From an uncultured Clostridium sp. (GTDB taxonomy: Bacteria; Bacillota; Clostridia; TANB77; CAG-508): 50,389 bases of DNA. The DNA lies in NCBI GenBank assembly GCA_964634355.1, contig CAZWIF010000001.1, forward strand, positions 1 through 50,389, in the 5' to 3' direction. The position numbers and the translations under genes were made by a program. This document shows, piece after piece, positions 6,767-43,160 of the stretch. The first letter of the stretch is position 1. Every line of letters begins with the position of its first letter. Below the pieces are notes generated by a model. That model saw nothing but the letters and a program-made list of their open reading frames with translations, did no database searches and had not been told where the DNA came from.

Positions 6767-9523
6767 TTGAAGGTTCTTCAGAATTTATATTATGTTTATA
6801 AAATACCATCGAATAAAATAAATAGTTTACAAACATACAGTTTCAAAGATGCTAAAAGAGATGGTTGCGTAGTATCTATAGGGGATAATTTAGTCTTTGC
6901 TAAAATAAGAGAATATTATGGAGAAACAGGAGACCATATATCTTTATATAACAAAGTACAAGATATAAGAAAAGAAATGAAAAGTATAAAGAAACAACCT
7001 ACTTGTCAAGAAAATATAGATAAATTAAAAGATTTACAGCATCAGTTAGATAAAATGCTTTTTATAGATGATATAGTTAATATAAAGGTTATTACTAAAA
7101 AAGAATATAAACAAATTGCTAGAAATGGATTTGATTTAAACGGTAAACATTATGTAAGATTTATGGTTGGCTCTGGTCAAATGAGAAGAAATACCGTAAG
7201 TTTTATTAATGAAAAATTATATGATTATATGCAAGAGCATTTGATGTGTGGGTTGGATAAAAAAATTAAAAATATAAATTTAGCAAAATTGAGTGCTTAT
7301 TTTGCATTATCATTTTCATCAGTTTTGTGGGTGAGGGAGCCAAAAGTATGTGTTATAAAAGATTTTGATACAGTGATACCGAATCAAAGGCTTGATTTTA
7401 TTTATAAAGATGAAGAAGAAAAAAATCAAGTTAAGGAAATATATAAAGATTTAAAACTTAATAGCTGTGATGGGCAAGGGATTATAAGCCCAGAAATGGC
7501 TCAAAATTGGTCTGAAGATATGCACTTGAATTATGTTCCTTGCTCATTTGTGGTTAGAACCGCATTTATAAAAGGAAATTTGGTCACGTTTGATTTTAAA
7601 GAATATGCAAAAGAAAACGGTATAACTAAAATTAAAGATAGATATGGAACGGAATATAATATTGAGGATATAGATGTATTATTATCAGAGTCACAGTTCA
7701 AAATGGCAAAATATTATTCTGCTTGGGAAGGGTATTTAAGTTATCACCACTCTTACCATTTAAAATGGGGAGTAGCAAGATATAACAAGGAATTTGATGA
7801 TGAATATGTTTTAACTAATTATCAATATATACAAGTTCTTGATTTAAATAGAGAAGATATAAAGGGATTAGTATCTTATACAACAGATTGGTTTAAAAAT
7901 ATTTGTAGCGGTGATAAATTATATTCTTTAGCTTATAATATAGGTATTAAAAATCCAGAGGATAACTTATCAGAGATTGTTAATTCTTGTGGTAGTACCT
8001 TTACTAAAGCTATAGTAAAGAACTCTAATATGTTAGAAGATGGATACATTCAAAGAAAAATATACAATTCTATAAAAGAATCTATTCGTCAAGCTAAATT
8101 AGGAAGGATATGGGTGAAAGGAAATTATCAATTTATGATAAGTGACCCTATTGCTCAAGTAAGAAATGCTTTAGGCTTATCACCAGATGGAGAGCTGCAA
8201 GCCAATGAGGTTTATTCAAACTTCTGGAATGAGAGAAATGTTTCTGGTGAAGTTTGTTTAATGAGGAGCCCATTAACTCACTATTCAGAAATAAATGTAG
8301 AGAGATTAGCAAAAACAAAAGAAATGGATAAATGGTATAAATATATTTATAGCGGTGTTATATATAGCATATATGATATTGCCACTGTCAAGCACGCAGA
8401 TTCAGATTTTGATGGAGATATAGTTTGCTCAACTAATAATAAATATTTTTTAAAGGGAGCTATGAGGAATGAAATTCCTATAACTTATGAAAAAGAAATG
8501 GTTCCTACTCAAAGAGTGACATTGCCTAATTTTATTAGATGTGATGTTAAAGGTTTGGATACTAAAGTTGGACAGATTACCAATTATTCTACGAGCATGA
8601 TAGCTATGCTTCCATTATTCAAAGGTGAAAGACAGCAAGAGCAATTACAAGAAATGCAAAAAAGAATTAAACTTCTTAGAGAAATACAGGGTGCCGAAAT
8701 AGATAAAATAAAAGGAACTACTCCACCTCAATTTCCAAAAGAATGGAGATATTGGGTAAAAATAGATAAAGATGATGATGATATAACTAAAGCAGAAAAG
8801 TATAAGTACAATTCAATGGTTGTTAAAAAGAAACCTTACTTTTTTATTTATCTATATTCTACTTTGATGAAAGAATATAGGGCGTATGAAAAAAATTTTA
8901 ATAGCATAAGCTATAAACACTTCGGAATGTCCATTAAAGATTTATTAAAAAAAGAAAATAGGTCTGAAGGAGAAAATAAGTTAATTAGAAAGTATAGAAA
9001 ATATTCTCCTGTATTAGAGACGGATTGTGTTATGAATAATTTATGTAAAGAAATAGAAAGTTCTGATTCTGACATTAAATTCCATCCAAGTAAGGTGAGT
9101 TTATTAAATGATTTTGCTGATTATTCAAATATTGATAATGAGAAATTAATTGATTTAATGGATATATGCAAGACATATAAATCTGAAAAGCAATTTAAAG
9201 GATTTTCAGCCATGATAGAAAATGAAGGAATTGCTGATAGTGACATTGTAGAAATTATGAATCAAGTTTTATATGGGCATAAAGATGAATATAGAGAAAA
9301 AGTTAAAAATCTATTTAGTAATACAAGAGAGTTATTTAATCACTTGATGATGATGTGTCAGATAAAGAAAATGAATCATGATATAGTTTGGGATATAATG
9401 GGGGATGACATAGTAGATATTATACCTGTTTGTAATCCTACTGTTTTGGTAGAAGATGATAATGGTGTTGAATATTTAGGACATAAATATCAATTACAGG
9501 AGGTTAATAATGTTAATATTTGA
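6767..9523 (+). CDS. YonO-like single-subunit two-barrel RNA polymerase (beta-prime / RdRP-like), 918 aa
   Basis: HADSDFDGD (nt 8399-8419) matches the NADFDGD / DxDGD metal-binding loop. About 45 aa upstream, LMRSPLTHYSEI (from nt 8261) matches the NRAPTLHRLGI-type DPBB strand. TTG start at 6767 with AGGAGG at 6752-6757; the track's ATG at 6725 lies inside the upstream gene. Confidence 0.7.
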   Translation: MKVLQNLYYVYKIPSNKINSLQTYSFKDAKRDGCVVSIGDNLVFAKIREYYGETGDHISLYNKVQDIRKEMKSIKKQPTCQENIDKLKDLQHQLDKMLFIDDIVNIKVITKKEYKQIARNGFDLNGKHYVRFMVGSGQMRRNTVSFINEKLYDYMQEHLMCGLDKKIKNINLAKLSAYFALSFSSVLWVREPKVCVIKDFDTVIPNQRLDFIYKDEEEKNQVKEIYKDLKLNSCDGQGIISPEMAQNWSEDMHLNYVPCSFVVRTAFIKGNLVTFDFKEYAKENGITKIKDRYGTEYNIEDIDVLLSESQFKMAKYYSAWEGYLSYHHSYHLKWGVARYNKEFDDEYVLTNYQYIQVLDLNREDIKGLVSYTTDWFKNICSGDKLYSLAYNIGIKNPEDNLSEIVNSCGSTFTKAIVKNSNMLEDGYIQRKIYNSIKESIRQAKLGRIWVKGNYQFMISDPIAQVRNALGLSPDGELQANEVYSNFWNERNVSGEVCLMRSPLTHYSEINVERLAKTKEMDKWYKYIYSGVIYSIYDIATVKHADSDFDGDIVCSTNNKYFLKGAMRNEIPITYEKEMVPTQRVTLPNFIRCDVKGLDTKVGQITNYSTSMIAMLPLFKGERQQEQLQEMQKRIKLLREIQGAEIDKIKGTTPPQFPKEWRYWVKIDKDDDDITKAEKYKYNSMVVKKKPYFFIYLYSTLMKEYRAYEKNFNSISYKHFGMSIKDLLKKENRSEGENKLIRKYRKYSPVLETDCVMNNLCKEIESSDSDIKFHPSKVSLLNDFADYSNIDNEKLIDLMDICKTYKSEKQFKGFSAMIENEGIADSDIVEIMNQVLYGHKDEYREKVKNLFSNTRELFNHLMMMCQIKKMNHDIVWDIMGDDIVDIIPVCNPTVLVEDDNGVEYLGHKYQLQEVNNVNI

Positions 9524-11627: not shown

Positions 11628-12455
11628 GTGGCTACAAAAAGTAAAAGAGTTACTACGAGTCAGCCAAAAGAGCCTAAAAAAATTTGTCAAAATCAATCTT
11701 GCGATGCTATGGGTAGATACCAAAATAAGAGTAATTTTTATAAGTCAAGAAATATATCAATAGGGTATCATCCTTATTGTAAAGAATGTGTTAATAAAAT
11801 AATAGATATTGACAATATGCAAACGGTTTATGATGTTTTGCAGACTTTAGACACGCCATTTATACAGGATGTCTGGAAAGAGGCTCTGGCGGATGTAGAT
11901 GGTAATTTTATAGATAGGTATTTAAATTTAATAAATAACACATATAAGACAAGATATGAAAATGCAAGATTTAAAGATAGCATTTATGATAGTGAAATGG
12001 TATTAGAAAAAGATGAAGATGGAAAAGAAATTAAAAACTGGGATGATACTTGGCAAGGGTATTATTCAAAAAGAGAATTAAATTATTTAAATAAATACTA
12101 TCAAGATTTAAATAATGACTTTAAAATAATAACGACTAATCATAAGGATTATGCTCGAAGAATTGCACAGGCTTCGTTAACAATGAATGATACTTACAAT
12201 ATAATGAGAGATAATCCAGATGATAAAGATGCAGTTAGTGCTTATAACACTGCTGTATCGAATTTTGATAGATTATCAAAATCAGCACAATTCGCTGAAA
12301 GCCAAAGAGGAGCAAACGATGTTTCCTTGGGCTGTTTCGGTAGGGTATTTGATGCTGTAGAAAAACATAATTTTGTTCCTCAACATATACCAGAAGATAA
12401 AGATATGTTTGATAAAATTATAGACCAATTTTCAAATATTGAGAAGAGTTTATAA
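11628..12455 (+). CDS. Putative terminase small subunit (Cys-rich N-terminus), 275 aa
   Basis: Lies immediately upstream of terL with a TAATG overlap. GTG start after GAAAGGTGA. The assignment is positional only. Confidence 0.4.
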   Translation: MATKSKRVTTSQPKEPKKICQNQSCDAMGRYQNKSNFYKSRNISIGYHPYCKECVNKIIDIDNMQTVYDVLQTLDTPFIQDVWKEALADVDGNFIDRYLNLINNTYKTRYENARFKDSIYDSEMVLEKDEDGKEIKNWDDTWQGYYSKRELNYLNKYYQDLNNDFKIITTNHKDYARRIAQASLTMNDTYNIMRDNPDDKDAVSAYNTAVSNFDRLSKSAQFAESQRGANDVSLGCFGRVFDAVEKHNFVPQHIPEDKDMFDKIIDQFSNIEKSL

Positions 12456-14574
12456 TGGCAGTTAACATAAAAAAAGTCAGAAGAGGTGTTGAAGCTCAAA
12501 AAACTTGGGGATATGATAATACGGATTCCCCATTGAGTTATGACCCTATTAATGAAGAAAAAATTGATTATGAAGAATGGACTAAATTTTTATCGTACTA
12601 TAGATATTATGTTGATGAATTTGCAGTCGATATTTTAGGAATGGATAATTTATTTCCATTTCAAAGATTATTATTAAGAGCAATGGGAAGATTCCCAAAC
12701 ATAATGTTTATTATGTGTAGAGGTAGACGTACTGTTATGCCCCTGATTTATGGTGACATAAATCTAAGCATCGGGCAAAATCGGTGAAGGCTAAAATTAT
12801 AATCGAGGAGATAAAATGAAATATATGACAAAGTAATATAGTAATAAAAGGTTATAATAATGTTAATACCGAGATAATTATCTAAATTAAAAAGTAGATA
12901 ATATTGTAACGCATAGAGATTGAAACTTTATAAAAAGAATATAATATCTCCACGAGTGTCCGACATCTTATACAAAGATGAAAATATATGCTAATCTGAA
13001 ATGGAATTGACCATTTAATGAAAATGAGGGAAACCTCCAGAGTGATAGATAAAAAGCTATCAGTTAAGAACATAATGTTAACCAAGTCTTATATTGCTGC
13101 AATATTCATTTGCTGTATGGCTATTTTATATCCAGGTATGGCGATAGGTATAGTATCTGGAAACGGTAATCAAGCAAGAATGGTTATTAAACAGAAAATA
13201 GAAGGAGAATTATGTAAGAACGAAAATATTAAAAGAGAAATTAAAAGTATAAAAACAGGTATGGACGATTGTGTCGTTACTTTTAAAAATGGAAGTTCTA
13301 TAAGAGCCTTTACATTAGGTAATAATCAAAAAGGTGATACCAGTAGAGGATTAAGATTTCAATTGATATTAGTTGATGAGGCGAGATTGGTTAAGACAGA
13401 AGTTTTAAAACAAGTTTTAGTACCAATGACAAAAACTCCAAGAACTAATGCGATAGATTTAAAAAAGAGATTCCCAGATGCACCTTATGAAGAAGGTCGT
13501 ATGGTTTATATTTCTTCTGCTTGGTTAAAAACTTGTGATTTATATCAAAGATTTTTAAATTTCTATAGTCAAATGATTGCGGGAGATAAAAATTATTTTG
13601 TTGCTAGTCTTGATTATAGAGTGGGTATAGATGCAGGATTATTTACAGAAGAAAATATGATGATAGAAAAAAATGACCCGGAAATGACTCTCGACAAGTG
13701 GGCTTACGAGTACGAAGGTCGATTTGTTGGTAGTGCAAATGATAGTTATTATCCTTATGATATAACTTCAAAATGTAGGTCATTAGATAGATGTGAATTA
13801 GAACAGCCTAAAAAATGTCAATATAGATATATAGTAACGCACGATGTAGCCGTATCTGGCAAATCAGGTTCGGATAATGCCTGTACTCATGTTATAAAAT
13901 TAATTCCTAGAAAAAATGGTACATTTACTAAACAAGTTGTTTTTACAAAGACAATGAATGGAGCAACATTAAAAGAGCAAAGAGATTTTTTAAGGGAACT
14001 TATTCATATTAGATTTCCTAATACAGATAAATTAGTAATAGATGCTCAATCTGCTGGGCAAGGTTTGTTATCTTTATTAGAAGAGCCTTGGACTGCGAGA
14101 AATAATAGGGGAGAAATAGAAGAATTTCCTCCGTTGATTTGTGACGATGATGAAGAAGCACAAATATTATTACCAGATGCAGAGCCCTTAATAAGAGGGA
14201 TAACTGCTACTCAAGAATTTAATAGCACTTTTTATCCATATATGAAAAGTGGATTTGAAGACAGGAGCTTACAATTATTAGTAGACAGCAGTGAAAAAGA
14301 TGAAGAATATAAGAGTGGAAAATATAGACCTGAAGAACAGTTAATTCATATTGAACACGATAGTTTAGTTCAAGAATTAAGTAACATAAAACAATCATAT
14401 TCTGAATATGGGAAGATAATTTATACTAGAATTGTTAAAAGTAAAAAGAGAGACCGTGTTACAAGTTTAATGTATGGTTTATCTGTTGTTTGGGAATATG
14501 AGAAACAAGGAAAAGCAGATATGTATAAAAAAGAGGTAGACCCTCTTTCATATTTAAAAAAATATATATATTAA
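12455..14574 (+). CDS. terL: Terminase large subunit, split gene: exon 1 12455-12724, exon 2 13078-14574 (588 aa after splicing)
   Basis: Exon 1 ends ...FIMCRG and exon 2 starts LTKSYIAAIF.... Joined, CRG|LTKSYIAAIF has the spacing of the T4 gp17 Walker A region SRQLGKTTVVAIF. Exon 2 carries Walker B LILVDEA and a nuclease-domain-like IVTHDVAVSG. Confidence 0.8.
12725..13077 (+). mobile_element. ORF-less intervening sequence in terL, probable group I intron (353 nt)
   Basis: The 5' exon ends in U (GGT at 12722-12724) and the insert ends in G (13077). Candidate P1 is AGAGGU / GCCCCU (12739-12744) with a terminal U.G pair. Candidate P7 is GGAGAT (about 12806) / ATCTCC (about 12945), the latter preceded by the J8/7-like AAGAATATAAT. 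Stops occur in all frames. Confidence 0.65.
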
Positions 14575-25348: not shown

Positions 25349-25783
25349 ATGGAACAAATTACAATTGGACAAATATTTAGCATCTTTGCAATACTGGCTG
25401 GTGCGATTGGTTCTATAGGTATCGTTGCTGGAGTCATTGTTAAATTTTGGAAATGGGCTAGCAAAAAAGAAATAAATCCCGTTCTTGATGAAATGGCTGC
25501 AATGGAAAAAAGAATGCTAAATGAAATTAATGCTGGGGGAGATTTAATCAACCAAAAGATAGATGGCTTGAAAAATGATATTAAATTGTTAGACATTAAT
25601 CAATGCAAAGATGTTATCATCAATTATATATCTGCTTTAGAACAAAATAGAAGCATAGATTCTTCTTTTGAGGAACGTGCTTATGAGGCTATGGACAGAT
25701 ATACAAACGTCCTACATCAAAACTCTTACATTCATAAAAGATGGGAAGAAGTTGTTGATAATATAAAGGACATTAAGGAGTAG
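25349..25783 (+). CDS. N-terminal single-TM protein with coiled-coil ectodomain (144 aa)
   Basis: TM segment IFSIFAILAGAIGSIGIVAGVIV. RBS AGAGGGAG lies before the ATG at 25349. Confidence 0.5.
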   Translation: MEQITIGQIFSIFAILAGAIGSIGIVAGVIVKFWKWASKKEINPVLDEMAAMEKRMLNEINAGGDLINQKIDGLKNDIKLLDINQCKDVIINYISALEQNRSIDSSFEERAYEAMDRYTNVLHQNSYIHKRWEEVVDNIKDIKE

Positions 25784-25790
25784 ATGAATA

Positions 25791-25931
25791 TTGGAAATCA
25801 TCGGTATATTTATAGCGTTAATAATTATAGGATTTGTAATAATCCCTGTATGTTTAAATTTATGTAAACAACAAATATGGGAATTTGTTAAAGAGAATAT
25901 AGAGAAAGATGCGAGATATAAAAAGATGGTG
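25791..25931 (+). CDS. Small single-TM protein (46 aa), below the ORF-track cutoff
   Basis: TTG at 25791 lies 10 nt after AAGGAG. Translation LEIIGIFIALIIIGFVIIPVCLNLCKQQIWEFVKENIEKDARYKRW. Confidence 0.3.
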
Positions 25932-25959
25932 AAAGATATGCTGAAAGGAAAAAAATGAG

Positions 25960-26499
25960 ATGGAGATTTTAGGAATTGATGCCGCAACTAAAAAGACCGG
26001 CTATAGTATTTTAAATTTTGAAACTGGTAATTTAGTTGATTATGGATTAATAGAAACTAGCTCTGTTGATGTTAGAGAAAGAATGAAGGAAATCTATTCT
26101 AATTTAAAAGAAATAATAATGAATAATAATAACATCAAGGTAGTTGTTGTTGAGGATATACCTGTTAATAATCATTCAAACTTAAAAACGGGTAAGGACT
26201 TATCAATACTACACGGAGTAATATTAGGGGTATGTTTTGAACAACACCTACCTTGTGTAGTTTATGCACCATCGAGTTGGCGTTCAGTTGTAGGGACTTA
26301 TGACGGAACTAGGCAAGGAATGAAAAGAAAAGTGCAAAAACAAGCCGCCGTAAAAAAGGTTAATGAAATATATAATTTAGATTTTAATTATTATGAGCGA
26401 GATACCAAGAAGAAGCAGAGTGATGATGACATAGCTGAGGCTATTATGATTGCTCGTGCTTTTTTTTTGGATGAAAAAGAAAACAAGGAGGAAGAATAA
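25960..26499 (+). CDS. RuvC-like Holliday-junction resolvase (179 aa)
   Basis: ILGIDAATKKTGYS (first catalytic Asp), VVVEDIP (Glu), and DDDIAEAIMIA (C-terminal acidic pair). Confidence 0.7.
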   Translation: MEILGIDAATKKTGYSILNFETGNLVDYGLIETSSVDVRERMKEIYSNLKEIIMNNNNIKVVVVEDIPVNNHSNLKTGKDLSILHGVILGVCFEQHLPCVVYAPSSWRSVVGTYDGTRQGMKRKVQKQAAVKKVNEIYNLDFNYYERDTKKKQSDDDIAEAIMIARAFFLDEKENKEEE

Positions 26500-27598: not shown

Positions 27599-30500
27599 AT
27601 GGATTATAACATAAAATTAGGGATTCAATTAGATGAAAGTTCCATCACTAAAATAAAAACTGATTTAGATACTAAATTAAAAGATGAAAATTTTGAAGTT
27701 AGTTTTAGTTCAACAGGATTAGACGATGTTTCCAAAAAGCTAGATGAAATTAGCACTAAATTAGGAAATGTTTCTAAAGAAGACAGTTTTAATAAAACCT
27801 CTTCCGGTGCAAAAACAGCCTCTAAAGCAGTTGATACTTTAAATAGCAAATTAGAAAAGACTACCAAGCACATTAAGAATCAATCTTTTGCGACAGATAA
27901 TTGGACTTATAACTGGTCTAAAGCAATGCAATCATTCTTGACTTATAATACAGTAACTCAATTCTTTAATACAATAAGCAATGGTATTCAAGATATGATT
28001 ATGGAAGTTAAAGACCTCGATGATTCTTTAACTGAATTAAAGAAAGTAACTGACCTAGAAGGAGAATCCTTAGAAAATTTTGTTAGTGAGGCATACTCGG
28101 CGGGGCAAAATGTAGCTAAAACCGGAAAAGAAATGGTTGATTCGGCTACCTCATTTGCTAAAGCTGGATATGACGATAGTGAAATTTTAAAACTAGGTGA
28201 AGTTGCGGCTATGTATACAAACATCGCCGATGAAGAAATATCAACTGCTGATGCAGCTGATTTTATTATAGCTCAATTAAAAGCATTTAACTTAGAGGCT
28301 AGTGATACCAATGAAACATTAGAAAATTCATATCATATTATAGATGCTGTTAATGAGGTTTCAAATAACTTTGCTGTCAGTTCTTCTGATATAGCAACAA
28401 ATATGGGTAAGGCATCATCGGTAATGGCAAATGCAGGAAACTCAATGGAGCAAATGATTGGCTTAAATAATAGGTCAAGTAAAATAACCTTAATTGACGG
28501 GGAGTTCCTTAGAGATATTATAAACCAACCTATAACAGTAATGTATATAGGGGCTCTGACGTAATGGTCGAGGTATGGTAAAATATATAATATATTGGAT
28601 GACCCGCAGCTAAGCATCCTAAGAGTAAGGATGAAAGTTCAACGATTAGTAAGTCCATATAATTATGGCATAGGCTCAAATGAGCTGAAATGGGTTACAT
28701 TTATGAAACGAATCATAAATGAAGATATAATCTAATCTTATATGAAAATGTAAGGAGTTGTTTTATAATGTATAAAAATCAAAAAAAAACAAAAGAATTT
28801 ATTGAAAATTTTTTTAAAAATAGAGGATATTGTGTAGAGGAAGAATATATTAATTCATCTACTCCTATAAAAATAAAAGATAAAAATGGCTATATTTCCA
28901 AAATAACTTATAGTAATTTAAGAATGGGGGAAAAACCAACTTTTTTTGGAATTAATAATGAATTTTTAGAGGATAATGTCAAAACTCTTATAAAAAAAAC
29001 AAACAAAAATATTGTTTTTGAAAAATATGAAATTATTACTAAAAGTAAAAAAAAAAGAGTTTTAGTTTATATGCAGTGTGAATGTGGCAATCATTTTAAA
29101 AGAGTATTGGATGATATAAATAGAAAAGATAGAGGGTTATATTGTAATGAATGTGCCAAGAGAAAAAGAGGATTAAATCATAGAAAAGACAAAAACGAAA
29201 TGTTTAATAAAATAGAGTCCCTTGGATATAAGATATTAGATAAAAGTAAGCACTATTTGAGAAATGAATACATTGAAGTAATAAATCAAAGAGGATATAG
29301 AGGTTTTGTTAAATATAATTATTTGATGTCAGGGAAACATATGACTATATTTAATGAACATATTAATTTATCTAATTTTGTTTATAATGCTAATATATAT
29401 GCAAAAGAGAATAATATAAATTGTGAAGTATTAGAATTAAGTAAATTAAAAAAATGGAATAGACAGGGATTAAAAATAAAATGTGAATGTGGGAAATTAT
29501 TTGAAACATCTGTTGCTTCTTTTCAAAATGGAAAAATAAGATGTGACAAATGTTCAAACTCTATGTCAAAATTTGAATTTGCAGTCAAATCGTATTTAGA
29601 AGAGAGTAATATTAAATATATTAAAGAATTTTACTTTAATGACTGTAGAGATGTATTACCTTTACCTTTTGATTTTTATTTAGTAGACTTTGATAAAATT
29701 ATTGAGGTTGATGGACAAGGACATTATTATCCTGTTTCTTTTGGGGGAGATAAAGAACAAAATTTCATTATAACTAAAACCCATGATAAAATAAAAAATG
29801 ATTATTGTAGGGAAAAAAATATTCCATTACTTAGATTATCTTATAAAGATATTGAAAATGGAGAGTATATAAAAATTATAAAACAATTCATTGAAGATTA
29901 ATGACCTTCAATTAATATTATGTATTAACTGCTGGTACAGAAATTACAAGAAATGCAAGCAAGGTGGCAAATGGGCTTAAAACAATCACACTTCGCCTCC
30001 AAGAGAATTTTATAAACCCTTGGAATGTACAGAAATGTGCATTAAGAACAAGTTTAATTGCAGGTAATGCGTAAAGCTTCACACCGAAACAAAAAGATGA
30101 AATATGCTTAAGTGGAATGGTACGAAAGTAGAAAAAACGTGAAGATGATATATGGATGAAAATCCTAAGTATTGTAAACAATCGCTGTTCTTGCAGCCAA
30201 GTCTCGAATAGAGAAAGGCTCAACGACTATCCTTTAGACAGGCGAAAAATAAATATGTCAATAGGAGTAGGGCTCAAATCGTAAATGGAGTGGGTGAAAA
30301 TCCCTTAAATCGAAAAGGCTTGCCCTTAACAGGTAATGCTGAAGGTGATGAAATAGTCTGGACTTATGTGAAAGCATAAGAATATATAAAGTTATTAGGA
30401 AATAAGGGGAGAAAAAATGATTAGTCAAATAAAAAGAAATAATTAATAACTTTATATATTAGTGAATGTTGCGTATTCACTATAACAAAATCGGTATGAA

Positions 30501-33500
30501 TGACGAAGGAGAAGAAGACCTTGAGTTACAAGCCCAAATGGAAGAATTATTTAATAAATTAGGAGTATCTGTATATAATGCCAATGGAGAATTAAAAAAT
30601 ACTTATGATATATTAGATACTTTGGCACCTGTTTATGAAAATTTAACAGCTGCCGAGAAAAGTTATGTAACAGAAACAATTGCAGGTTGACTTATACTAG
30701 CCTGACCTTATGGAAACATAAGGGTTAAGAACGAATTTAACTGCTGGGAACTCGTGAAGATAAGTAAGCTACAACATAATTGGAAACGATAAGTGTGAAT
30801 GCGAAAAAATTACTTATTATATGATAATCAGCAACCAAGCTCCGTTATAGGAGAAGGCTCAACGACTATCCCAAATGGGAGTACACTCAAGTGAGTGGAA
30901 AAGGTTCGCATCTATAGATAGATGAAAATATAGTCTAGGCTTATGTGAAAATATAAGAAAGGATATTTAAGATGAAATTAAAATTAATAGAAGAAAAAGA
31001 TATAAATGGGGTAAAACAAAAAGCAAAATATATTGACGAAGAAGGATACTTATATAATTTAGATAATTTAAATAAATCAAAAGGAAGATTTTCAAGATTC
31101 AATCCTTATACTATAGAGAACATACATAATTATATAAAAATTAATAATATTTCTACAAAATTAATAAGCGATACTTTTAATTATGCGGCGAAAAATTGTC
31201 ATTTAACTTTTCAATGTGGTATGTGTCATAAAAATTTTGAGAGAACATGGAATAATTTTTATAAAGGCAAATATAAATATTGTCAAGATTGTATAATTAA
31301 AATACAAGCTAAAGAAAAATATTTTACAATAGACGAAGTAAAGGAAAAATGTTTAAAAAAAGGCTTTAAAGTTATACAAGAGGAATATTATGGAAATCGA
31401 GAGCCATTAGATGTTGAAGATAAAGATGGATATAGAGGAAGAACAACTTGGAATGAAATAAAAAATGGGAAACATTTTATTAAATTTAGGATTCAAAACC
31501 CTTATTTTTATTATAATGTAAGAAATTATTTCAAAATTAATAATTATAATTGTGATATAGTAGAAAATAGTGGAGAAGAACGAAAAAGCAAGTTTAAATT
31601 TATATGTGAGTGTGGAAAAGAGTATATTTCAACATTAGATGAAGTTCTCAATAATACCAAGCCTAGAATTAGATGTAAAGCCTGTTCAAATTCTATTTCT
31701 AATGGTGAAAAGGCTATTATGGATTGGCTTGATAAGAATAAAATAGAATATATATATCAATATAAATTTAATGATTGTAGAAATATAAAACCTTTGCCAT
31801 TCGACTTTTTTTTGCCTAAATTTAATATATGTATAGAATTTGACGGACAGTATCATTTTGAGAGGCAGGCTCATACAACTGAAAAGCAATTTGAATATCA
31901 AAAAATGAGAGACAATATTAAAACTGAATATTGCAAAAATAATGAAATAAAATTAATTAGAATTCCTTATTGGAATTTATATAATAAAAAATATAAGAAT
32001 ATATTGAAACAAAATATCCTTATGTAAAATTAACGACTTTACATTTACTTTACGAAATACCAAGCCCAGAACGCTGCTGCCATACTTTCCAATTGGTCAA
32101 CAGCTGTTGAAGCAACAACAACTGCACTAAACAGTAATGGCAGTGCTGCAGAAGAAAATGCCAAAGTTATGGATTCTGTTCAAGGTCATTTGCAGAAATT
32201 GCAAAGTTCCTGGTCTGAATTTGCAAATAGTATATTTAATTCAGGTATTTTAAAATTATTTATTGATATAGGAAACGCAATGTTAAGTTTTGCTAATATC
32301 AAATTGCCAGGATTAGATACATCTATTGCTAAAATTACAATTCTAGCCGGAGCGATAAAATTATTAACGCCAGCATTAATTGAACTTAAAAATAAAATTA
32401 TGGCTACTACAGATAGCTTAAGTAAAAATTCTATTCAAATGTTAATGAATACGGAAGCTATTGAAGCTTGTGATAAAGCTACTAAGAAACAAATATTAAG
32501 TTTGTTAAGTGCTAAAGGTGCTTACAATAAAAACAACGATTCTTTAAGTAAAAACACAAAAGCTGCTATAAAGAATACTTTAATAAAATCCGGTATGTCT
32601 AAAGCGGATGCTAAAGTTGCTGTTGCGACAATTGCTGAGACTAGTGCCACCAAAGGATTAACCGCTGCTACTTGGGGACAAGTTGCCGCACAGAAAGCTT
32701 TACAAGCTGCAAAATCAATGAGTTTATCTTTATTGGCATCTGCAGCGATTGAAGGGGCAATTAAACTTGTTTCTAAATTAATAGAGGTCTATAAAGAAGG
32801 TCATAAGACTGCCGAGGAAGTATATAATGATGCAAAAGAAGAGTATGATGAAATTCAAACCGAATTAGACGATATAAATAGTCAATTAGAAGAAACAGCT
32901 AATAGAATAGATGAGTTGAATAGTGAAGATAGCTTGTCTTTTATAGAGAAAAGTGAACTTGATAAGCTAAAGGATACAACTAAAGAGCTGATTAAACAAC
33001 AAAAACTTCTTAAAGAGAAAGAGGAAAAAGCACAAAAAGAGAAAGAAAAAGCAGCAGATGCGGCAGCTGAATCTGATTTAAATAGCAACGTCAAATATAA
33101 AACTACAAAAAAATATGTTAAAGATACTTCCTTCTTAACTAATTTTAATAAAAATAATTTGATACCATCCAGTGATAATACATTAAATTTTAATTATCAA
33201 ACAAAAGAATTAGAAACTTATCTTAGTGCATTAGAGGAATTAAAAAATAAGTATAAGGATAATAAAGATTTAGTAAGTCAAATAGATGCTGAAATTAATA
33301 GGGTAAAAACCGATTCAAATGCTACAAACGATGTAGAGGTAAATGTATCAACATCTTTAAAAAAAGCTGCTGAAACTAATGTTAAATCTTATCAAGACTA
33401 TACAAAACAGATAGAAGAAAATAAAAATAAAATAAAAGAATATCAAAAACAAGTTGAAGAGTATGAAGAAAAAAATCCTCTCGTTAAGCAATCAGAAACA

Positions 33501-36500
33501 TTGGGTATGACGCCTCAATTTGAGGTTGGTAGCCAAGAGTCGCAAGACTATTTTGGTTATAAAGCGGCACAAGAACAAATAAAAAAACTACAAGAGGAAC
33601 AAGATAATTTAAATAAAAAAAGAACAACTGCAAAAGATAATTTAAAAGATGAACAAACAGCTTATGAAAATATTTTAACTAATGAAGAATATCGAAATGA
33701 TTTGTCTGATGAAGAATTACAGAAATTATATGAACAATATGAATTGATTTTAAAAATATCCGACCCAAATAAATATAAAGATATGAAATTTACAGATTTT
33801 ATGAGTGACGATGACAATAAAGATGCTGCAAATCAGTTATTAAGTTTAAAAGATGCCGGAAAAGTTACTGCTAAACAAATTAAGGAATTAGCTAAAGAAT
33901 TTCCTGAATTTAATAATTATTTAACCAATACAGATACATCGGCACAGGAGGCGGCTGACCAATTAAATAGTATGACTGGTGAAACTGAGGCATTATTAAA
34001 AGCTCAAATAGAGTCTGTTGATTCTTGGTCTGATACTATGTCAAATCTCCAATCGCAATATGACACTTTAACATCGGCTGTAGATGAATATAATAATAGT
34101 GGTTATATTAGTGGCTCAACGATGAAAAGTCTGGTAGATAGTGGTGTATTACAATATTTAGAATGGGAAAATGGACAATTAGTCGCCAACACAGGTGCTC
34201 TTTATGATAATGCAGATGCTGCAAAAATACTTGCATTAACTGAATTACAAACTGCGTATGCTAAAGATGTTCTTGCTATTACAACCGGTGATTTAACAGA
34301 CGCATCAGAAACAGCAAAAAACATTATTAAAGGCGAGAAGGATGAAATGGATGGCTTAGGAGATATTGCCAAGGCACAAGCTAAAGGATTATTCACTCTT
34401 GCGACAGCCGAAGCTGCTGCTGGTGACCCTGAGGCTGTTGCAGCTAAAGCCGAACAAATTAATAAATTAAATGATGCTTATAATAATATGGCTAAAACCA
34501 TGACCGAATTTGATTATAGCAGTGCAAGAGTAACTAGATATTCAGGTTCTAGTGACTCATCTGGTTCCAGCTCATCATCATCATCTTCAAAAGAATGGTG
34601 GGAAGAAGAACTAGACAACCTCAAAGACCAATTTGATTATAGTGAAATAACTATAAATGAATATATAAATGGACTTCAAGCTTTATTAAATAAGACTGAA
34701 GAGGGTTCAGAAGCTTGGAAGAAAATCAATAAAGAGCTTCAAAAGCAACGTCTCGATAAAGTTAAAGATGACTATGATGCCGGAAGAATCTCATTGACAC
34801 AATATATTAACGAACTTAAAAATTTACAAAAGGCATATAAAGCAGGAACAGACGCTTGGAATGATTTAGCAGATGCAATAAAAGATGCACAGCTGGATTT
34901 ATTAAAAGAACAACAATCTGATTTAGAGGCAGCATTATCTGCTGTTAACAATTTATTAGATGACCAAATAGATAAATATGAGGAAGCTAAAGATGCTGCT
35001 GATGAAAAATATGATGACGAAATAGAAAAACTTGAGGATTTACAAGAAGAGCTTGAAGAACAAGATGACAATTATCAAAGAGCACAACAGGCTGTTCTTG
35101 ATTATTTAAATGAACAACTAGACGCATTAAATGAACAAAAAGATTCAGTAGAAGAATATTATGATACTGTTATAGATGCTATAGAGAAGATGAATGAAGA
35201 ACAGTCTGAATCTATAGAATTAGCAGAGGCTTATGAATCATTGATGAACGCAATGACACAAAAGTCGAAGAAGGTAAAATATATGCTTTCTATAAAGATA
35301 GCTCAAAACGGGGAAACTCCTGAGAAGGACAATCCCGTGGGTAAGATTTATTTTAAATATATTATAATGAAAGGAGTAGAATTATGGCTAGTGGTAAAAG
35401 ATACACTATCGAAGAATTTAAAAATAAATTATTTAAAATAAAATCCCGTAACGACCACAGAGATATAGGTAACTATACTCGTATGCTATCCTTTCACTAA
35501 ATGTGATTGAAGGTATGGTCTGAACTGCAAATATAATCTAAAAAATGAAATTGCAGAGTTAGGTTTAACGACCTAACCGCCACATTGTGTGGTCAGTAAT
35601 CTATAAGATGAAAGTAACAGAGTTTGATATAAAGAAGGACTCGGTAAAAAGTTAGCCGAGTATAAAGATAACTATATCGGTCAAATGCTAGAAGTAGTAC
35701 AGACCGAGGTAAGATTGAATTTAAGGAGGTGCGTTTATGGGTAAAACAAAAAAAAAGACGCATCAAGAATTTTTAAAAGAAATGAAAATAAAACATCCAA
35801 ATTTAGAAATTACAGGTATTTACTATAATTCGTCAAGTAGAATTTCTTATATTTGTAAAAAATGTGGTTTGCATTGGAGTGCTAAAGCTGCAAAATTAAG
35901 CTTAGGCAGAGGATGTCCCAAGTGTGCAGGAAATAAGAGAAAAACTACCGAAGAATTTATTAAAGAAGTAAATAAGATAAATCCCAATATTAAAGTTTTA
36001 AGTGAATATAAAAGCACTTCTAATAAAGTGCTTTTTAAATGCAAGAAATGTGGGTATGAGTGGGAAACTTTTCCTGGTGGTGTATTAAGGGGAAAAGGAT
36101 GTATGATTTGCGGAAAAAAAAGTATGGGAGATAAATTAAGAAAATCTCATAAAGATTTTGCGAATGAAATTTCCTTAATTAATAATAATATAGAATTGAC
36201 AAGTGAATATCGAGGACAGAAAGAAAAAATATGGTGTCAATGCAAGAAATGTCGATATGAGTGGGAAACTTTTCCTACTACATTGTTAGCAGGACATGGA
36301 TGTCCTAACTGTTCCTTATCTAAAGGAGAAGAACAAATTTCAATAATTCTAAATAAATATAATTTACTATATGAAACTCAAAAAAAATTCTCAGGTTTAA
36401 TTGGAGTTGGAGGAAATCAATTATCTTATGATTTTTATATTCCAGAATTAAATCTTTTAATTGAATATCAAGGGAAACAACATAAAAGACCTATAGAATA

Positions 36501-37723
36501 TTTTGGTGGAGTAAAAACTTTTGAAAGACAAAAAATACACGATAAATTAAAAAGGAATTATGCAATTTCAAATAATTTTAATTTTTTAGAAATTTGGTAT
36601 TATGATAATTTACAAGAAAAATTAGAAAAGACCTTAGATTCAATAACCGTAACGACTGCAGGATATTAGTGGTAACATTAATATTGAAGTTATCACCTTA
36701 TTTACCCTATAAGGCAATATACAGTCTGGACTATGAATATAACAAAATGAAATCATAGAATTAGGCTTAACGACCTAATCGCCACAAATAAAAGTGGTCA
36801 GTAACCTATAAGGTGAAAGTAACAGTTCGTGGATTTGGACTACCGATGCCGAAGCTATAGCTGATGCTAAAAAGACTTATGAGGATTTGCTTACAAGTGC
36901 TACAACAAAAGAAATAGAAGAACAAAAAGATGCTACTATAAATTCATTAGAAGACCAAATAGAGGCATTACAAGAGTATATAGATTCTTGGGACGATGTA
37001 CTTAATAAATTTGATAATGAAAAAAATAGAAATTTAGCCGATTTATTACTTGGTGAAAATTGGACTGAAATGGTCTCCCAATTAGACCCACAAGTAGTAG
37101 AGGACTTTTCTGACGCTTATTATGAGCTTCAAAAGAATCTCGATGAAACAGAGAAACAAATAGAAGAATTAAATAAGCAAAAAGAAGAGGAAGATGAATA
37201 TTGGGATAAACTAATTGAAGATTTAGAAACTTATCAAGAAAAGTGGGATGAAGTATCAGATGCTTATGAAGAAGCTCAAGATGCTTTAAAAGCTGCTCAA
37301 ATAATAGGTGCAAATTGGGAAAAAGATATTCTTGACCAAAGACTTGATGTATTAGAAAACTTTAAAAATAAGTATAATGCAATACTTGCCGAAATTGATA
37401 AAGTTGATAATATGTCTACGGATGAAGCATCTAGTTATACAGCATTAAGATTACCTGGTTATGCTAATGGTGGTGAAATTGATTATACTGGTCTTGCAGT
37501 ATTACATGGAACACCAAATAAACCAGAATATGTTCTTAATAACACTCAAATGAGAAATTTACTAAGTAATCTTATCAAGCCAAAATTTACTTCTAATACA
37601 GCAACAGGTTCTTCAGTTACAAATAATTATAATTTTGGTAATATTGAATTACCAAATGTTACAAATGCAAGACAATTTGCTAACGAATTAAAATCTTTAT
37701 TAAATATAACTAAAAATCAATAA
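27599..37723 (+). CDS. Tail tape-measure protein (TP901/TIGR01760-like core), split gene. Exons: 27599-28463, 29923-29998 (or to 30003), 30495 (or 30494)-30687, 32055-35275, 36826-37723. Conceptual product is about 1750 aa.
   Basis: The joined exons read ...NAGNSMEQMIG|LLTAGTEITRNASKVANGLKTITLRL(Q)|(G)MNDEGEEDLELQ...YVTETIAG|KYQAQNAAAILSNWSTAVEATT...MTQKSKKV|SWIWTTDAEAIADAKK...GYANGGEIDYTG. This is a continuous canonical tape-measure core. Exon lengths sum to a multiple of 3 (5253 or 5259 nt). Confidence 0.85.
28464..29922 (+). mobile_element. Group I intron 1 (1459 nt, lineage A) carrying a homing endonuclease ORF
   Basis: P1 is UUGGCU (28458-28463) / GGUCAA (28473-28478) with U.G at the splice site. 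R element GTTCAACGATTAGT at 28637-28650. S element AAGATATAATCT at 28722-28733. P7 is GATT/AATC. A terminal 7-bp hairpin ATTGAAG/CTTCAAT is followed by 10 nt ending in G29922. Confidence 0.8.
28768..29901 (+). CDS. Intron-encoded homing endonuclease: Zn-ribbon (CxC...CxxC) repeats plus C-terminal DUF559/Vsr-like PD-(D/E)XK nuclease domain (377 aa)
   Basis: Own RBS AAGGAG. CECGNHF...CNEC and CECGKLF...CDKC modules. C-terminal FEFAVKSYLEESNIKYIKEF...LPFDFYLVDFDKIIEVDGQGH matches the DUF559 pattern E..l..L...F..Q....DF.......iE.DG..H. Confidence 0.7.
   Translation: MYKNQKKTKEFIENFFKNRGYCVEEEYINSSTPIKIKDKNGYISKITYSNLRMGEKPTFFGINNEFLEDNVKTLIKKTNKNIVFEKYEIITKSKKKRVLVYMQCECGNHFKRVLDDINRKDRGLYCNECAKRKRGLNHRKDKNEMFNKIESLGYKILDKSKHYLRNEYIEVINQRGYRGFVKYNYLMSGKHMTIFNEHINLSNFVYNANIYAKENNINCEVLELSKLKKWNRQGLKIKCECGKLFETSVASFQNGKIRCDKCSNSMSKFEFAVKSYLEESNIKYIKEFYFNDCRDVLPLPFDFYLVDFDKIIEVDGQGHYYPVSFGGDKEQNFIITKTHDKIKNDYCREKNIPLLRLSYKDIENGEYIKIIKQFIED
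29999..30494 (+). mobile_element. Group I intron 2 (about 490-496 nt, lineage A), ORF-deleted derivative. Ends are uncertain by about 5 nt.
   Basis: R element GGCTCAACGACTATCC (30217-30232) is identical to intron 3. S element GATGAAATAGTCTGG at 30347-30361. P2 hairpin AATGTACA-GAAA-TGTGCATT at 30024-30043. Relic RBS AAGGGGAG plus ATG at 30417 encodes only MISQIKRNN. Terminal hairpin AGTGAAT/ATTCACT. Confidence 0.65.
30688..32054 (+). mobile_element. Group I intron 3 (1367 nt, lineage A) carrying a homing endonuclease ORF
   Basis: P1 is CAGGU (30683-30687) / GCCUG (30700-30704) with a terminal U.G. P2 is CCTTATG-GAAA-CATAAGG (30706-30723). R at 30856-30871. S AAAATATAGTCT at 30925-30936. P7 is GACT/AGTC. 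The terminal hairpin ATGTAAA/TTTACAT is followed by 10 nt ending in G32054. Confidence 0.8.
30972..32027 (+). CDS. Intron-encoded homing endonuclease, paralogue of 28768-29901 (351 aa)
   Basis: Same architecture: CGMCHKNF...CQDC and CECGKEY...CKAC, with C-terminal GEKAIMDWLDKNKIEYIYQYKF...LPFDFFLPKFNICIEFDGQYH. Confidence 0.7.
   Translation: MKLKLIEEKDINGVKQKAKYIDEEGYLYNLDNLNKSKGRFSRFNPYTIENIHNYIKINNISTKLISDTFNYAAKNCHLTFQCGMCHKNFERTWNNFYKGKYKYCQDCIIKIQAKEKYFTIDEVKEKCLKKGFKVIQEEYYGNREPLDVEDKDGYRGRTTWNEIKNGKHFIKFRIQNPYFYYNVRNYFKINNYNCDIVENSGEERKSKFKFICECGKEYISTLDEVLNNTKPRIRCKACSNSISNGEKAIMDWLDKNKIEYIYQYKFNDCRNIKPLPFDFFLPKFNICIEFDGQYHFERQAHTTEKQFEYQKMRDNIKTEYCKNNEIKLIRIPYWNLYNKKYKNILKQNILM
35276..35620 (+). 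mobile_element. Group I intron 4a (345 nt, lineage B), ORF-deleted
   Basis: P1 is GAAGGU (35270-35275) / GCUUUC (35285-35290) with a 9-nt loop. P7 is GACC (35453-35456) / GGTC (35517-35520). The 3' 100 nt are roughly 80% identical by eye to intron 4b and end ...GAAAGTAACAG. A relic ORF at 35384-35500 starts MASGKRYTIEEFKNKLFKIKS, compared with MGKTKKKTHQEFLKEMKIKHP in 4b. Confidence 0.7.
35646..36825 (+). mobile_element. Group I intron 4b (1180 nt, lineage B) carrying a homing endonuclease ORF
   Basis: P1 is CUCGGU (35640-35645) / GCCGAG (35655-35660): five Watson-Crick pairs plus a terminal U.G, with a 9-nt loop. P7 is GACT (36654-36657) / AGTC (36723-36726). P8 is GTGGTAAC/GTTATCAC. P9-type hairpins are CTATGA/TCATAG, TTAGG/CCTAA and CCAC/GTGG. 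It ends at G36825. Confidence 0.8.
35737..36669 (+). CDS. Intron-encoded homing endonuclease, three CxxC...CxxC Zn-ribbon repeats plus DUF559/Vsr-like nuclease (310 aa)
   Basis: Strong RBS AAGGAGG. Repeats CKKCGLHW...CPKC, CKKCGYEW...CMIC and CKKCRYEW...CPNC. C-terminal GEEQISIILNKYNLLYETQKKF...SYDFYIPELNLLIEYQGKQH. The last codons overlap the P7 5' strand. Confidence 0.75.
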   Translation: MGKTKKKTHQEFLKEMKIKHPNLEITGIYYNSSSRISYICKKCGLHWSAKAAKLSLGRGCPKCAGNKRKTTEEFIKEVNKINPNIKVLSEYKSTSNKVLFKCKKCGYEWETFPGGVLRGKGCMICGKKSMGDKLRKSHKDFANEISLINNNIELTSEYRGQKEKIWCQCKKCRYEWETFPTTLLAGHGCPNCSLSKGEEQISIILNKYNLLYETQKKFSGLIGVGGNQLSYDFYIPELNLLIEYQGKQHKRPIEYFGGVKTFERQKIHDKLKRNYAISNNFNFLEIWYYDNLQEKLEKTLDSITVTTAGY

Positions 37724-42389: not shown

Positions 42390-42500
42390 CTACACAGCTA
42401 TTTTGCATTTAAATGTAAGTAAATTTCTAGTGATTTGGAATTACACAATGTGTTATTCTGGATTGCATATAATTTTAAAAATGAGAAAGGAGGCATATTA

Positions 42501-43160
42501 ATGGCTAAGCAAACAATAAATAATCTTGAATCTGCAGCAACTGTTAGAACCAAGATTAATAGTAACTTTACAGAGTTATATGACCAAAAAGCTGATAACA
42601 ATCACGCATATACAGATTCAAGTTATGGTGCTGCATCAAATGAACTTTTTGGTCACGTTAAAATTAATGTAGCCAATGGCTTAAATGTTAGTGATGGCAT
42701 AGTAAGTTTAGCTCTTGCAACGACTACAAGTGCTGGTGCGGTGCAATTAGCTGATTCTCTTACTTCTGAAGATTCAGGAAAAGCGTTGAGTGCTGCTCAA
42801 GGCAAAATATTAAGTGATTCTTTAACATCATTAGACAATAATACTCCTCCAAAAAATCACGCAGTTGATAATGGTGATTATGGACTTGCAACAAGTTCTT
42901 TGTATGGGCATTTGAGAGTCACATCCGGAAATGGATTAACTTTATCGAATGGTACTTTATCATTAAATGCTGCAACTACAAGTGCTGTCGGTGCAGTACA
43001 ATTGGAGGATTCATTAGAATCTCAATCTACTACGAAAGCATTAACGGCAAATATGGGTTATTATTTAGATACACATAAAGCTGAAGCTTTTAGTGGAACA
43101 ACGGTGCCAAGTAATAGTCTTGGTAGTGATGGAGATATATACTTTTTACTAGAAAATTAA
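42501..43160 (+). CDS. Tail fibre protein with an internal duplication (219 aa)
   Basis: The ATG at 42501 follows AAAGGAGG. Two copies of the module YG.A...L(F/Y)GH(V/L)...GNGL......L...TT(S)A(G/V)GAVQL.DSL.S.....AL(S/T)A. Confidence 0.55.
   Translation: MAKQTINNLESAATVRTKINSNFTELYDQKADNNHAYTDSSYGAASNELFGHVKINVANGLNVSDGIVSLALATTTSAGAVQLADSLTSEDSGKALSAAQGKILSDSLTSLDNNTPPKNHAVDNGDYGLATSSLYGHLRVTSGNGLTLSNGTLSLNAATTSAVGAVQLEDSLESQSTTKALTANMGYYLDTHKAEAFSGTTVPSNSLGSDGDIYFLLEN

Follow-up and report, generated by a model that had tools for sequence, protein, structure and literature searches.

Positions 27599-37723 of contig CAZWIF010000001.1 very probably hold a single TP901-type tape-measure protein (TMP) gene interrupted by five group I introns. 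The window that we analyzed is the entire 50,389-nt contig of a metagenomic assembly, present in both NCBI and Logan, and all of the evidence was obtained in silico from DNA. Alignment with intron-less homologues divided the gene into six exons and five introns (I1, I2, I3, I4a and I4b), the latter accounting for 4851 of its 10125 nt (48%). The message joined in this way is 5274 nt long and forms an open frame of 1757 aa with no internal stop. A first-pass annotation of the same DNA had proposed one TMP gene with five group I introns, a headline that was supported by every test we ran; its five exon pieces proved to be six, and although its joins did give an open frame (1750 codons), two of its four junctions were misplaced.

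On the + strand, where all of the features described below lie, the region contains five reading frames with TMP similarity and, between them, three open reading frames (ORFs) of 310-377 aa, which bears out the earlier description of TMP-like coding in separate frames with about 4.85 kb of inserts. In the unspliced frames, PF10145 (PhageMin_Tail) matched the first at profile positions 7-120 and the third at 150-201 only, while PHROG TMP families matched the first, third and last. The spliced core scored 116.6 bits against TIGR01760 (cutoff 28.8), covering profile positions 4-305 of 349. We searched a protein collection with the spliced N-terminal core and with the C-terminal part, and aligned the matches at the junctions. 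The corrected joins matched intron-less homologues at all five sites, at nucleotide or residue resolution, and read MIG^LLTAG, LRLQ G^MNDE, TIAG^KYQ and KKV^YKEGLG^WIW (carets mark splice or insertion sites).

Exon 1 (27599-28463, 865 nt; PF10145 positions 7-120, phrog_4211) ends in NSMEQMIG plus the first base of a Leu codon, and junction 1, MIG^LLTAGTE, is colinear with proteins P0004 and P0003 and with the DNA of locus L001. Exon 2 (29923-30003, 81 nt) encodes LLTAGTEITRNASKVANGLKTITLRLQ plus the first base of Gly and is colinear with LRLQGMNDEGE in P0001-P0005 (including P0003); in L001, the closest intron-less relative at junction 2 (89% aa identity), the DNA reads caa gga atg. In the window the insert is preceded by caa g and followed by gt atg, where relatives have caa gga atg, so exon 2 ends at G30003 and exon 3 starts at G30494. 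The flank CCAAG^ on the 5' side of this insert was also found in L002, L148 and L149. Exon 3 (30494-30687, 194 nt; GMNDEGEE...YVTETIAG, PF10145 positions 150-201) is colinear with homologues, and so is exon 4 (32055-35275, 3221 nt), which begins with KYQAQNAAAILSNW, corresponding to IAGKYQAQNAAAIL in homologues, and closes with MTQKSKK plus the first two bases of Val, matching ...QKTKKV in P0126, P0134 and L008. Exon 6 (36830-37723, 894 nt including the stop; WIWTTDAEA...NITKNQ) is colinear with P0126 (81%) and P0130, and the 3' splice site lies directly before UGG in L006 and L010 also. The first-pass joins at MIG^ and at TIAG^ (TIAG^KYQAQN) were exactly colinear with intron-less relatives; those at junctions 2 and 4, as placed there, were not.

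Between I4a and I4b, members of an intron family that we call type-4, lies exon 5, a micro-exon of 19 nt (35627-35645; A UAU AAA GAA GGA CUC GGU) that would contribute the third base of Val and YKEGLG. We recognized it as a sixth exon because intron-less relatives (P0126 with 81% identity, P0134, L008, L005 and others) read KKVYKEGLGWIW or KKVYKEGLGWIWTTDAEA at junction 4. The micro-exon serves as the 3' exon of I4a, and its last six bases are the P1 strand of I4b. A direct join of the 4a 5' site to the 4b 3' site would put the message out of frame, which means that accurate splicing is required of both introns. Ligated with the corrected joins, the first three junctions would read ...AUUGGCU^UAUUAACU, ...CUCCAAG^GUAUGAAU and ...GCAGGU^AAAUACCA, and the last two ...GAAGGU^AUAUAAAGAAGGACUCGGU^UGGAUUUGG. 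We also considered that the 25 nt between an apparent 4a end at 35620 and 4b might be a foreign 5'-exon remnant in a twintron-like tandem removed as a unit; this was rejected because YKEGLG is present in intron-less homologues and because type-4 introns end 3-8 nt past GUAACAG. A second micro-exon tandem was seen in the TMP core of the IMG/VR locus L253 (near the match at 2601), where 15 nt of exon encoding TAFKT separate a type-4 intron, with the end ...GUAACAGUUAUG, from a downstream intron of the I2 type.

The five inserts share several features of group I introns. With the boundaries set by colinearity, each ends in G (G29922, G30493, G32054, G35626 and G36829), and in four of the five (I1, I3, I4a and I4b) the 5' exon ends in a U paired with G, in the four P1 helices that had been pointed out earlier. 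I2 is the apparent exception, its homology-defined 5' exon ending in G. R-like and S-like elements are present in every insert, and P7 covaries between copies just as had been stated: GAUUA/UAAUC in I1, GACUA/UAGUC in I2 and I3, GACCA/UGGUC in I4a and GACUG/CAGUC in I4b. When small sub-windows, which amount to laxer Rfam filters, were searched (they took in I1, I2, I3 and I4a), I1-I3 aligned full-length to RF00028 with P3, P4-P6, P7 and P8. I3 scored 55.3 bits (E 4e-13), above the gathering score of 50, whereas I1 (47.1 bits, E 4e-11, full model, 28454-28754) and I2 (32.5 bits, E 3e-6) fell below it; for comparison, the phage K lysK intron scored 33.4 bits.

I1 (28464-29922, 1459 nt) has P1 UUGGCU (28458-63) / GGUCAA (28473-78), R at 28637-49 and S at 28721-37, and recurs at this position in L013, with 82% identity, as well as in P0021 and P0064, proteins that are truncated at MIG. 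I3 (30688-32054, 1367 nt) has P1 CAGGU (30683-87) / GCCUG (30700-04), R at 30856-71 and S at 30924-39. It is 97.6% identical to the L001 intron at the same site while the exons are only 79.7% identical, a signature of recent homing; moreover, exon identity with L001 climbs to 90% in the 192 nt adjoining I3, as expected for co-conversion. The proteins P0003 and P0012 stop at IAG, the I3 site. In Enterocloster phage CB457P1 (OP172753.1, ~25514-26299) the TMP-core match stops at query residue 272, near the IAG^ site, which suggests that this TMP gene may carry an intron there as well.

I4a (35276-35626, 351 nt; ending ...GUAACAGAGUUUG) has P1 GAAGGU (35270-75) / GCUUUC (35285-90), P3 GAUAGC (35297-302) / GCUAUC (35485-90), R at 35445-60 and S at 35509-25. 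The corresponding elements of I4b (35646-36829, 1184 nt; ending ...GUAACAGUUCG) are P1 CUCGGU (35640-45) / GCCGAG (35655-60), P3 GAUAAC (35667-72) / GUUAUC (36689-94), R at 36646-61 and S at 36715-31. The two introns share homology with one another and with the inserts that relatives carry at this TMP motif, and their guide sequences change with the exon: 4b has CUCGGU/GCCGAG where L010 has AUCGGU/GCCGAU, and 4a has GAAGGU/GCUUUC where L003 has GAGGGU/GCUCUC. The P6 loop of I4a holds the remnant of a homing-endonuclease gene (HEG) start (35384-35440; MASGKRYTIEEFKNKLFKI) that resembles the start of the L003 intron ORF (MASGVRLTMNTFKNRLL), and direct repeat D2 matches HEG3, the gene in I4b. I4a keeps every pairing even though its endonuclease gene has been cut to 19 codons.

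To describe this family, we aligned 17 type-4 sequences, with endonuclease loops cut out where present (alignment A2, 420 columns), and counted a structure of 63 pairs made up of P1, P2, P3, P4, P5, P6, P7 (crossing P3), P7.1, P9 and P9.1. Of the A2 cells, 94.6% were paired, compared with 33-39% when the 3' partners were slid; compensatory changes were found in 52 of the 63 pairs, and the covariation score was 0.593 versus at most 0.106 in controls, with none of 500 shuffles reaching the observed values. P3 and P7 form the group I pseudoknot; together with the helix order and a P7.1 that is inserted between P7 and P3', it agrees with an IA-type group I intron (the subgroup being assigned by topology). 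The R-like CCGUA(A/G)(C/A)GACU and S-like GAAUAUA(C/U)AGUC elements, the GGU^ paired with a guide GCC, and the terminal G, which in the 17 sequences lies 3-8 nt past GUAACAG, agree with it as well. Its 5' core pattern was found in more than 120 IMG/VR contigs (loci L028-L147), with and without endonuclease genes; 26 fetched copies (23 distinct sequences) are ORF-less, and the copies inspected lie mostly in TMP motifs, with some in other genes. Among isolated phage genomes the family is nearly absent, the only matches being weak ones in Thomasclavelia phages.

I2 (30004-30493, 490 nt, no ORF) differs from the other four at its 5' splice site. It has P1 UCCAAG (29998-30003) / CUUGGA (30019-24), R at 30217-32 and S at 30347-61; in its core (30215-30380) it shows 76% identity to the phage K lysK intron, and in its 5' half 74% identity to an intron of Clostridium phage D-1873 annotated as 'Group I catalytic intron'. 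Its 3' end, AAAAUCG^G, parallels AAUAAUCG^G of lysK. The lysK intron of phage K reportedly splices. At 30404-46, I2 retains the remnant of a HEG (a ribosome-binding site, ATG and nine codons), in the place where the relative L149 has a 359-aa HEG. We found more than 120 IMG/VR contigs matching the I2 5' module, and tabulated 28 distinct P1 helices. The family is marked by AUGUACAGAAAUGUGCAU directly after P1, and its +1 intron base is always A. Six I2-type junction types are backed by protein colinearity and a terminal G (window 29998-30024; loci L002, L148, L149, L252-L255, L262 and L264). Where colinearity was checked, the splice-site pair is G-C at the I2 site, including a compensatory variant UCAGG/CCUGG in a relative, U-A at an IAG^ site (L252, L264) and C-G at two other sites (L253, L255).

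Alternative placements of the I2 5' site were examined and rejected: a site after U30009 leaves a stop codon in the relative L149, and one after U29998 has no guide-sequence pairing and loses QG. The read-through QENFINPWNVQKCALRTSLIAG after exon 2 was likewise considered as a foreign exon remnant ending in IAG, and rejected; relatives with the same intron have the same read-through (LRLQENLINPWYVQKCA), which marks it as intron sequence. CB457P1 (OP172753.1) also contains, at ~8339-8518, a 71% match to the I2 5' half in an unannotated region.

Three of the introns hold HEGs and the other two hold HEG remnants. HEG1 (28768-29901, 377 aa) lies in the 3' peripheral region of I1 and matches phrog_559 (1e-52) and phrog_9084, 'homing endonuclease'; HEG2 (30972-32027, 351 aa) lies in I3 and matches phrog_559 (1e-52) and phrog_9084 (1e-30), with weak matches to DUF559 and a PvuRts1I-like nuclease; HEG3 (35737-36669, 310 aa) occupies the P6 loop of I4b, matches phrog_559 (3e-73) and contains a PF14311 treble-clef zinc finger (2e-22) and CapR (9e-13). 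At its 3' end HEG3 extends over the P6 3' strand and into the R element. The phrog_559, phrog_9084 and phrog_7140 families that the three ORFs match are homing or intron-encoded endonucleases; the ORFs have treble-clef zinc-finger repeats and are paralogous, being 29-33% identical to one another (HEG1 and HEG2, 31%); searches of PDB sequences with the endonucleases gave no significant match. HEG1-HEG3 are presumed to be active endonucleases.

The distribution of the introns among relatives fits mobile elements. None of the five sites is uniform, an intron being present in part of the relatives and absent from the rest: P0003/L001 have I3 and lack I1 and I2, the proteins P0016, P0017, P0019, P0024 and P0030 end at the I2 site, 4a alone is present in L003, L004, P0128, P0129 and P0131, 4b alone in L006, L007, L010 and P0137, and neither in L005, L008 and P0126. 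Relatives have further TMP sites at VSSAD^ (L022), at ANG^LKT and SVG^T (P0041, L003, L048, L060) and at GW(V)^, 5 nt past the 4b site (L013, L019, L032, L108). These too lie in conserved TMP motifs, and the earlier remark that the insertions hit the most conserved codons was qualitatively right. The most conserved TMP motifs thus contain at least eight insertion sites whose occupancy varies among relatives, a pattern that indicates heavy exchange of introns and endonucleases, and possibly interference competition, among co-infecting gut phages.

Taken together, these results suggest the following model. A large SPbeta-like or Enterocloster-phage-like siphovirus of the gut metagenome would express, from a single late gene, a 1757-aa tail tape-measure protein of the TP901 family. 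The primary transcript would carry I1 (28464-29922), I2 (30004-30493), I3 (30688-32054), I4a (35276-35626) and I4b (35646-36829), each folding as a ribozyme in which the final 5-6 bases of the exon pair with the internal guide sequence to form P1. An exogenous guanosine would attack after P1, the terminal G of the intron would then position the 3' splice site, and the exons would be ligated; five accurate splicing events would yield six exons, including the 19-nt micro-exon, in one frame. Both the self-splicing of the five inserts and its order are inferred here. The endonucleases of I1, I3 and I4b would cut intron-less alleles in co-infecting relatives, into which the intron would be copied by repair; I2 and I4a have lost their endonuclease genes.

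Several observations weigh against one gene with five introns. Splicing is deduced from DNA sequence. At the gathering score with default filters, RF00028 found nothing in the whole window, nor did it match I4a (E<=1) or L013, an ORF-less relative (E<=10). The 5' splice-site pair of I2 is G30003-C30019, whereas 'virtually all' group I introns have U.G there (PMC2504315), at a junction set by homology and by a lysK-like 3' end, ...AAUCG^G. Skipping of the micro-exon would shift the frame, and accurate sequential splicing is assumed. Finally, the tandem of 4a, micro-exon and 4b was found in this contig only and in none of the IMG/VR sequences searched.

The Rfam result can be accounted for. RF00028 also found nothing on 27.5-38 kb at E<=10, and I3 was missed by cmscan with default filters in both the 50-kb window and a 10.5-kb region, yet it scored above the gathering score when 1 kb was searched; we therefore rejected the whole-window null as a filter artefact, and for AT-rich phage DNA a blank Rfam scan of a whole contig does not argue against the presence of group I introns. 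A control intron annotated in Clostridium phage D-1873 (c-st type) gave no RF00028 match, and a 2025 survey states that RF00028 misses parts of phage introns that are split by endonuclease loops (PMC11878797). The Rfam check proposed in the first-pass annotation thus gave nothing at default filters, sub-window matches for I1, I2 and I3, and none for I4a. Taking a cmsearch null as a refutation would be wrong here, given the blank result at default filters and an I4a that RF00028 does not match.

One rival explanation is that the tandem is an assembly chimera of one strain with 4a only and another with 4b only, the real gene having four introns. The contig is metagenome-assembled, relatives carry 4a or 4b and never both, and the tandem was absent from the IMG/VR and JGI metagenomes searched (two metagenome matches were both chance). 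However, two such strains would have only the 19-nt exon in common, which by our own estimate is probably shorter than usual assembly k-mers. Furthermore, L253 is an independent case in which only 15 nt of exon separate a type-4 from an I2-type intron, so tandems do occur; and because long exact repeats common to 4a and 4b are absent (short blocks are 71-94% identical), we regard a chimera as very unlikely.

A second possibility is that the inserts are never spliced and are free-standing homing-endonuclease cassettes, which would leave the TMP as a pseudogene in a defective phage or as separate polypeptides. Free-standing endonuclease genes do split phage genes, and the RF00028 sub-window scans, which covered I1-I3 and I4a, gave no match for I4a. 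Against this, a start codon is absent from both exon 2 (81 nt) and exon 5 (19 nt), which could not be translated alone, the exons stay perfectly colinear and open across 5.3 kb, and the same inserts recur in many related phage contigs with otherwise intact exons. The two inserts without an endonuclease gene keep a conserved RNA structure, and the covariation in the inserts is at the RNA level rather than a protein-level constraint. We give this explanation hardly any credence beside a spliced gene.

The exact joins of the first-pass annotation (five exons, LRL^MNDEGEE at 29998/30495, KKV^SWIW at 35275/36826, with 4a and 4b removed together and a product of 1750 aa), which would read ...CGCCU^UAUGAAU at junction 2 and ...GAAGGU^UUCGUGG at junction 4 (the corrected joins would give CAAGGUAUG and GGUAUAUAAAGAAGGACUCGGUUGGAUU there), are in frame without a stop, keep the exon-U/intron-G rule and give a TMP-like product, but they can almost certainly be set aside: homologues have QG (LRLQGMNDEGE, caa gga atg) and YKEGLG (KKVYKEGLGWIWTTDAEA), encoded exactly at 29999-30003 plus 30494 and at 35627-35645; exon UCCAAG pairs with the guide sequence, and a relative has the compensatory UCAGG/CCUGG; the 17 type-4 introns do not end at GUAACAG itself; and relatives have 4a alone or 4b alone, each flanked by YKEGLG codons. 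The earlier join QKSKKV^SWIWTTDAEA therefore missed the 19-nt exon, and the ends of introns 4a and 4b move from 35620 and 36825 to 35626 and 36829. That both wrong joins stay in frame we take to be a coincidence.

With five spliced introns as the preferred reading, it is a serious if tentative possibility that I2 represents a large undescribed family of phage group I introns that selects its 5' splice site by any Watson-Crick pair (G-C, C-G or U-A, with +1 always A) and not by U.G, and that together with the type-4 family it makes the conserved TMP motifs of gut phages intron hot spots, dense enough for two ribozymes to share a micro-exon of 15-19 nt. If true, the lack of a U.G wobble in the I2 type would challenge the textbook rule of 5' splice-site recognition. 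With its 19-nt exon serving two ribozymes, the tandem would offer a small natural model in which to study how adjacent ribozymes choose their splice sites and in what order they splice. There are also consequences for annotation: gene callers give five TMP fragments and three 'HNH endonucleases' and lose the 27-aa and 6-aa exons, and the same misannotation is expected in many gut-phage genomes with these families (>120 IMG/VR contig matches each). None of the five introns was picked up by RF00028 at default filters, so phage metagenomes probably contain more group I introns than have been counted. Alignment A2 could serve as the starting point of a covariance model for type-4.

The structural genes of this phage are SPbeta-like, and relatives carry the YonB, YomW, YomV and YomU Pfam families. 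Among isolated phages, those of Enterocloster come nearest, with 47% identity in the TMP core, and SPbeta-like phages of Bacillus come next (~31%); closer relatives are found only in gut metagenome assemblies, binned to inconsistent taxa. The terL (YonF-like) gene (12455-14574) is also split, by an ORF-less insert of 353 nt (12725-13077). Its halves, ...IMCRG (ending at 12724) and LTKSYIAAIF (starting at 13078), are colinear with ...ICCRG^LGKSW of CST168 in Clostridium phage c-st; the insert follows GGU, ends in G, and has a candidate P1 (AGAGGU/GCCCCU), R/S-like elements and P7 GCAUA/UAUGC. RF00028 gave no match on the terL insert, which is backed by colinearity instead. Counting it, introns come to 5204 nt or 10.3% of the window, in line with the earlier figure of about 10%. 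A RuvC-like Holliday-junction resolvase ORF (25960-26499; MEILGIDAATKKTGYSIL...) lies in the tail-gene block just upstream of the TMP gene, and a PF02075 RuvC gene is at the same place in L002, L003 and L148. The exact R-like motif CAACGACUA also occurs at 42718-42726, within an ORF (42435-43160) with a weak tail-collar-fibre match; with no split gene evident there and 9 matches in the window versus 3.7 expected, this is probably chance.

Introns of this kind are already known, as group I introns (TMP-IVS1, IVS2, IVS3a and IVS3b) have been described in the TMP genes of Bacillus cereus-group prophages (Tourasse & Kolsto 2008, PMC2504315). The first-pass annotation knew of no TMP gene with five introns, and we found no such report either, but TMP introns as such are not new. 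The B. cereus-group introns belong to subclasses IA1/IA2 and occupy three sites with at most two introns per gene, and the same phage has a terL intron (PMC2504315). The likeness is considerable: the gene class is the same, the introns are IA-type, some endonuclease genes are degenerate, P1 is adapted where homologous introns occupy neighbouring sites, and a single site can be used by different introns. The difference is that here five introns lie in one gene, two of them 19 nt apart. DNA similarity of these introns to Bacillus phage records was not detectable, except for nine Bacillus records with weak I2 matches, and a type-4 search of phage records returned no Bacillus record.

Capsid, tail and terminase genes of phages are also reported to contain introns. 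Another phage gene with more than one self-splicing intron is Twort orf142, which reportedly has three introns and shows exon skipping in vitro. According to the 2025 survey, Bastillevirinae DNA polymerase and terL genes have up to three group I introns, which RF00028, as here, detects only partially when they contain an endonuclease loop (PMC11878797). Twort and Bastillevirinae genes thus have at most three introns compared with five here, and no micro-exon is reported for either in what we consulted; three was the largest number per phage gene in the literature consulted. What appears to be new is that one gene holds five introns, along with the micro-exon, the putative non-wobble splice site, and a pair of abundant but unannotated intron families, type-4 being the one that seems to escape Rfam.

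I2 most resembles the lysK intron (lysK-I1, with I-KsaI) and related introns of Twort-like phages, with which it shares, besides 76% identity in the core, the P7.1/P7.2 insertion and the 3' end ...AAUCG^G. It differs in that lysK has a canonical P1 (GGGU^...GCCC, U.G) whereas I2 has G-C and a different 5' module, and in that the host gene is a TMP rather than a lysin gene. For the micro-exon, we found no report of one of this sort in a phage. The closest parallel is provided by the mini-exons between organellar introns in fungal and protist mitochondrial genes, which are similarly very short, flanked by introns and overlooked by standard gene-modelling tools (PMC10352661); those are mitochondrial, whereas the phage exon described here must give 4b its P1 and 4a its 3' exon context.

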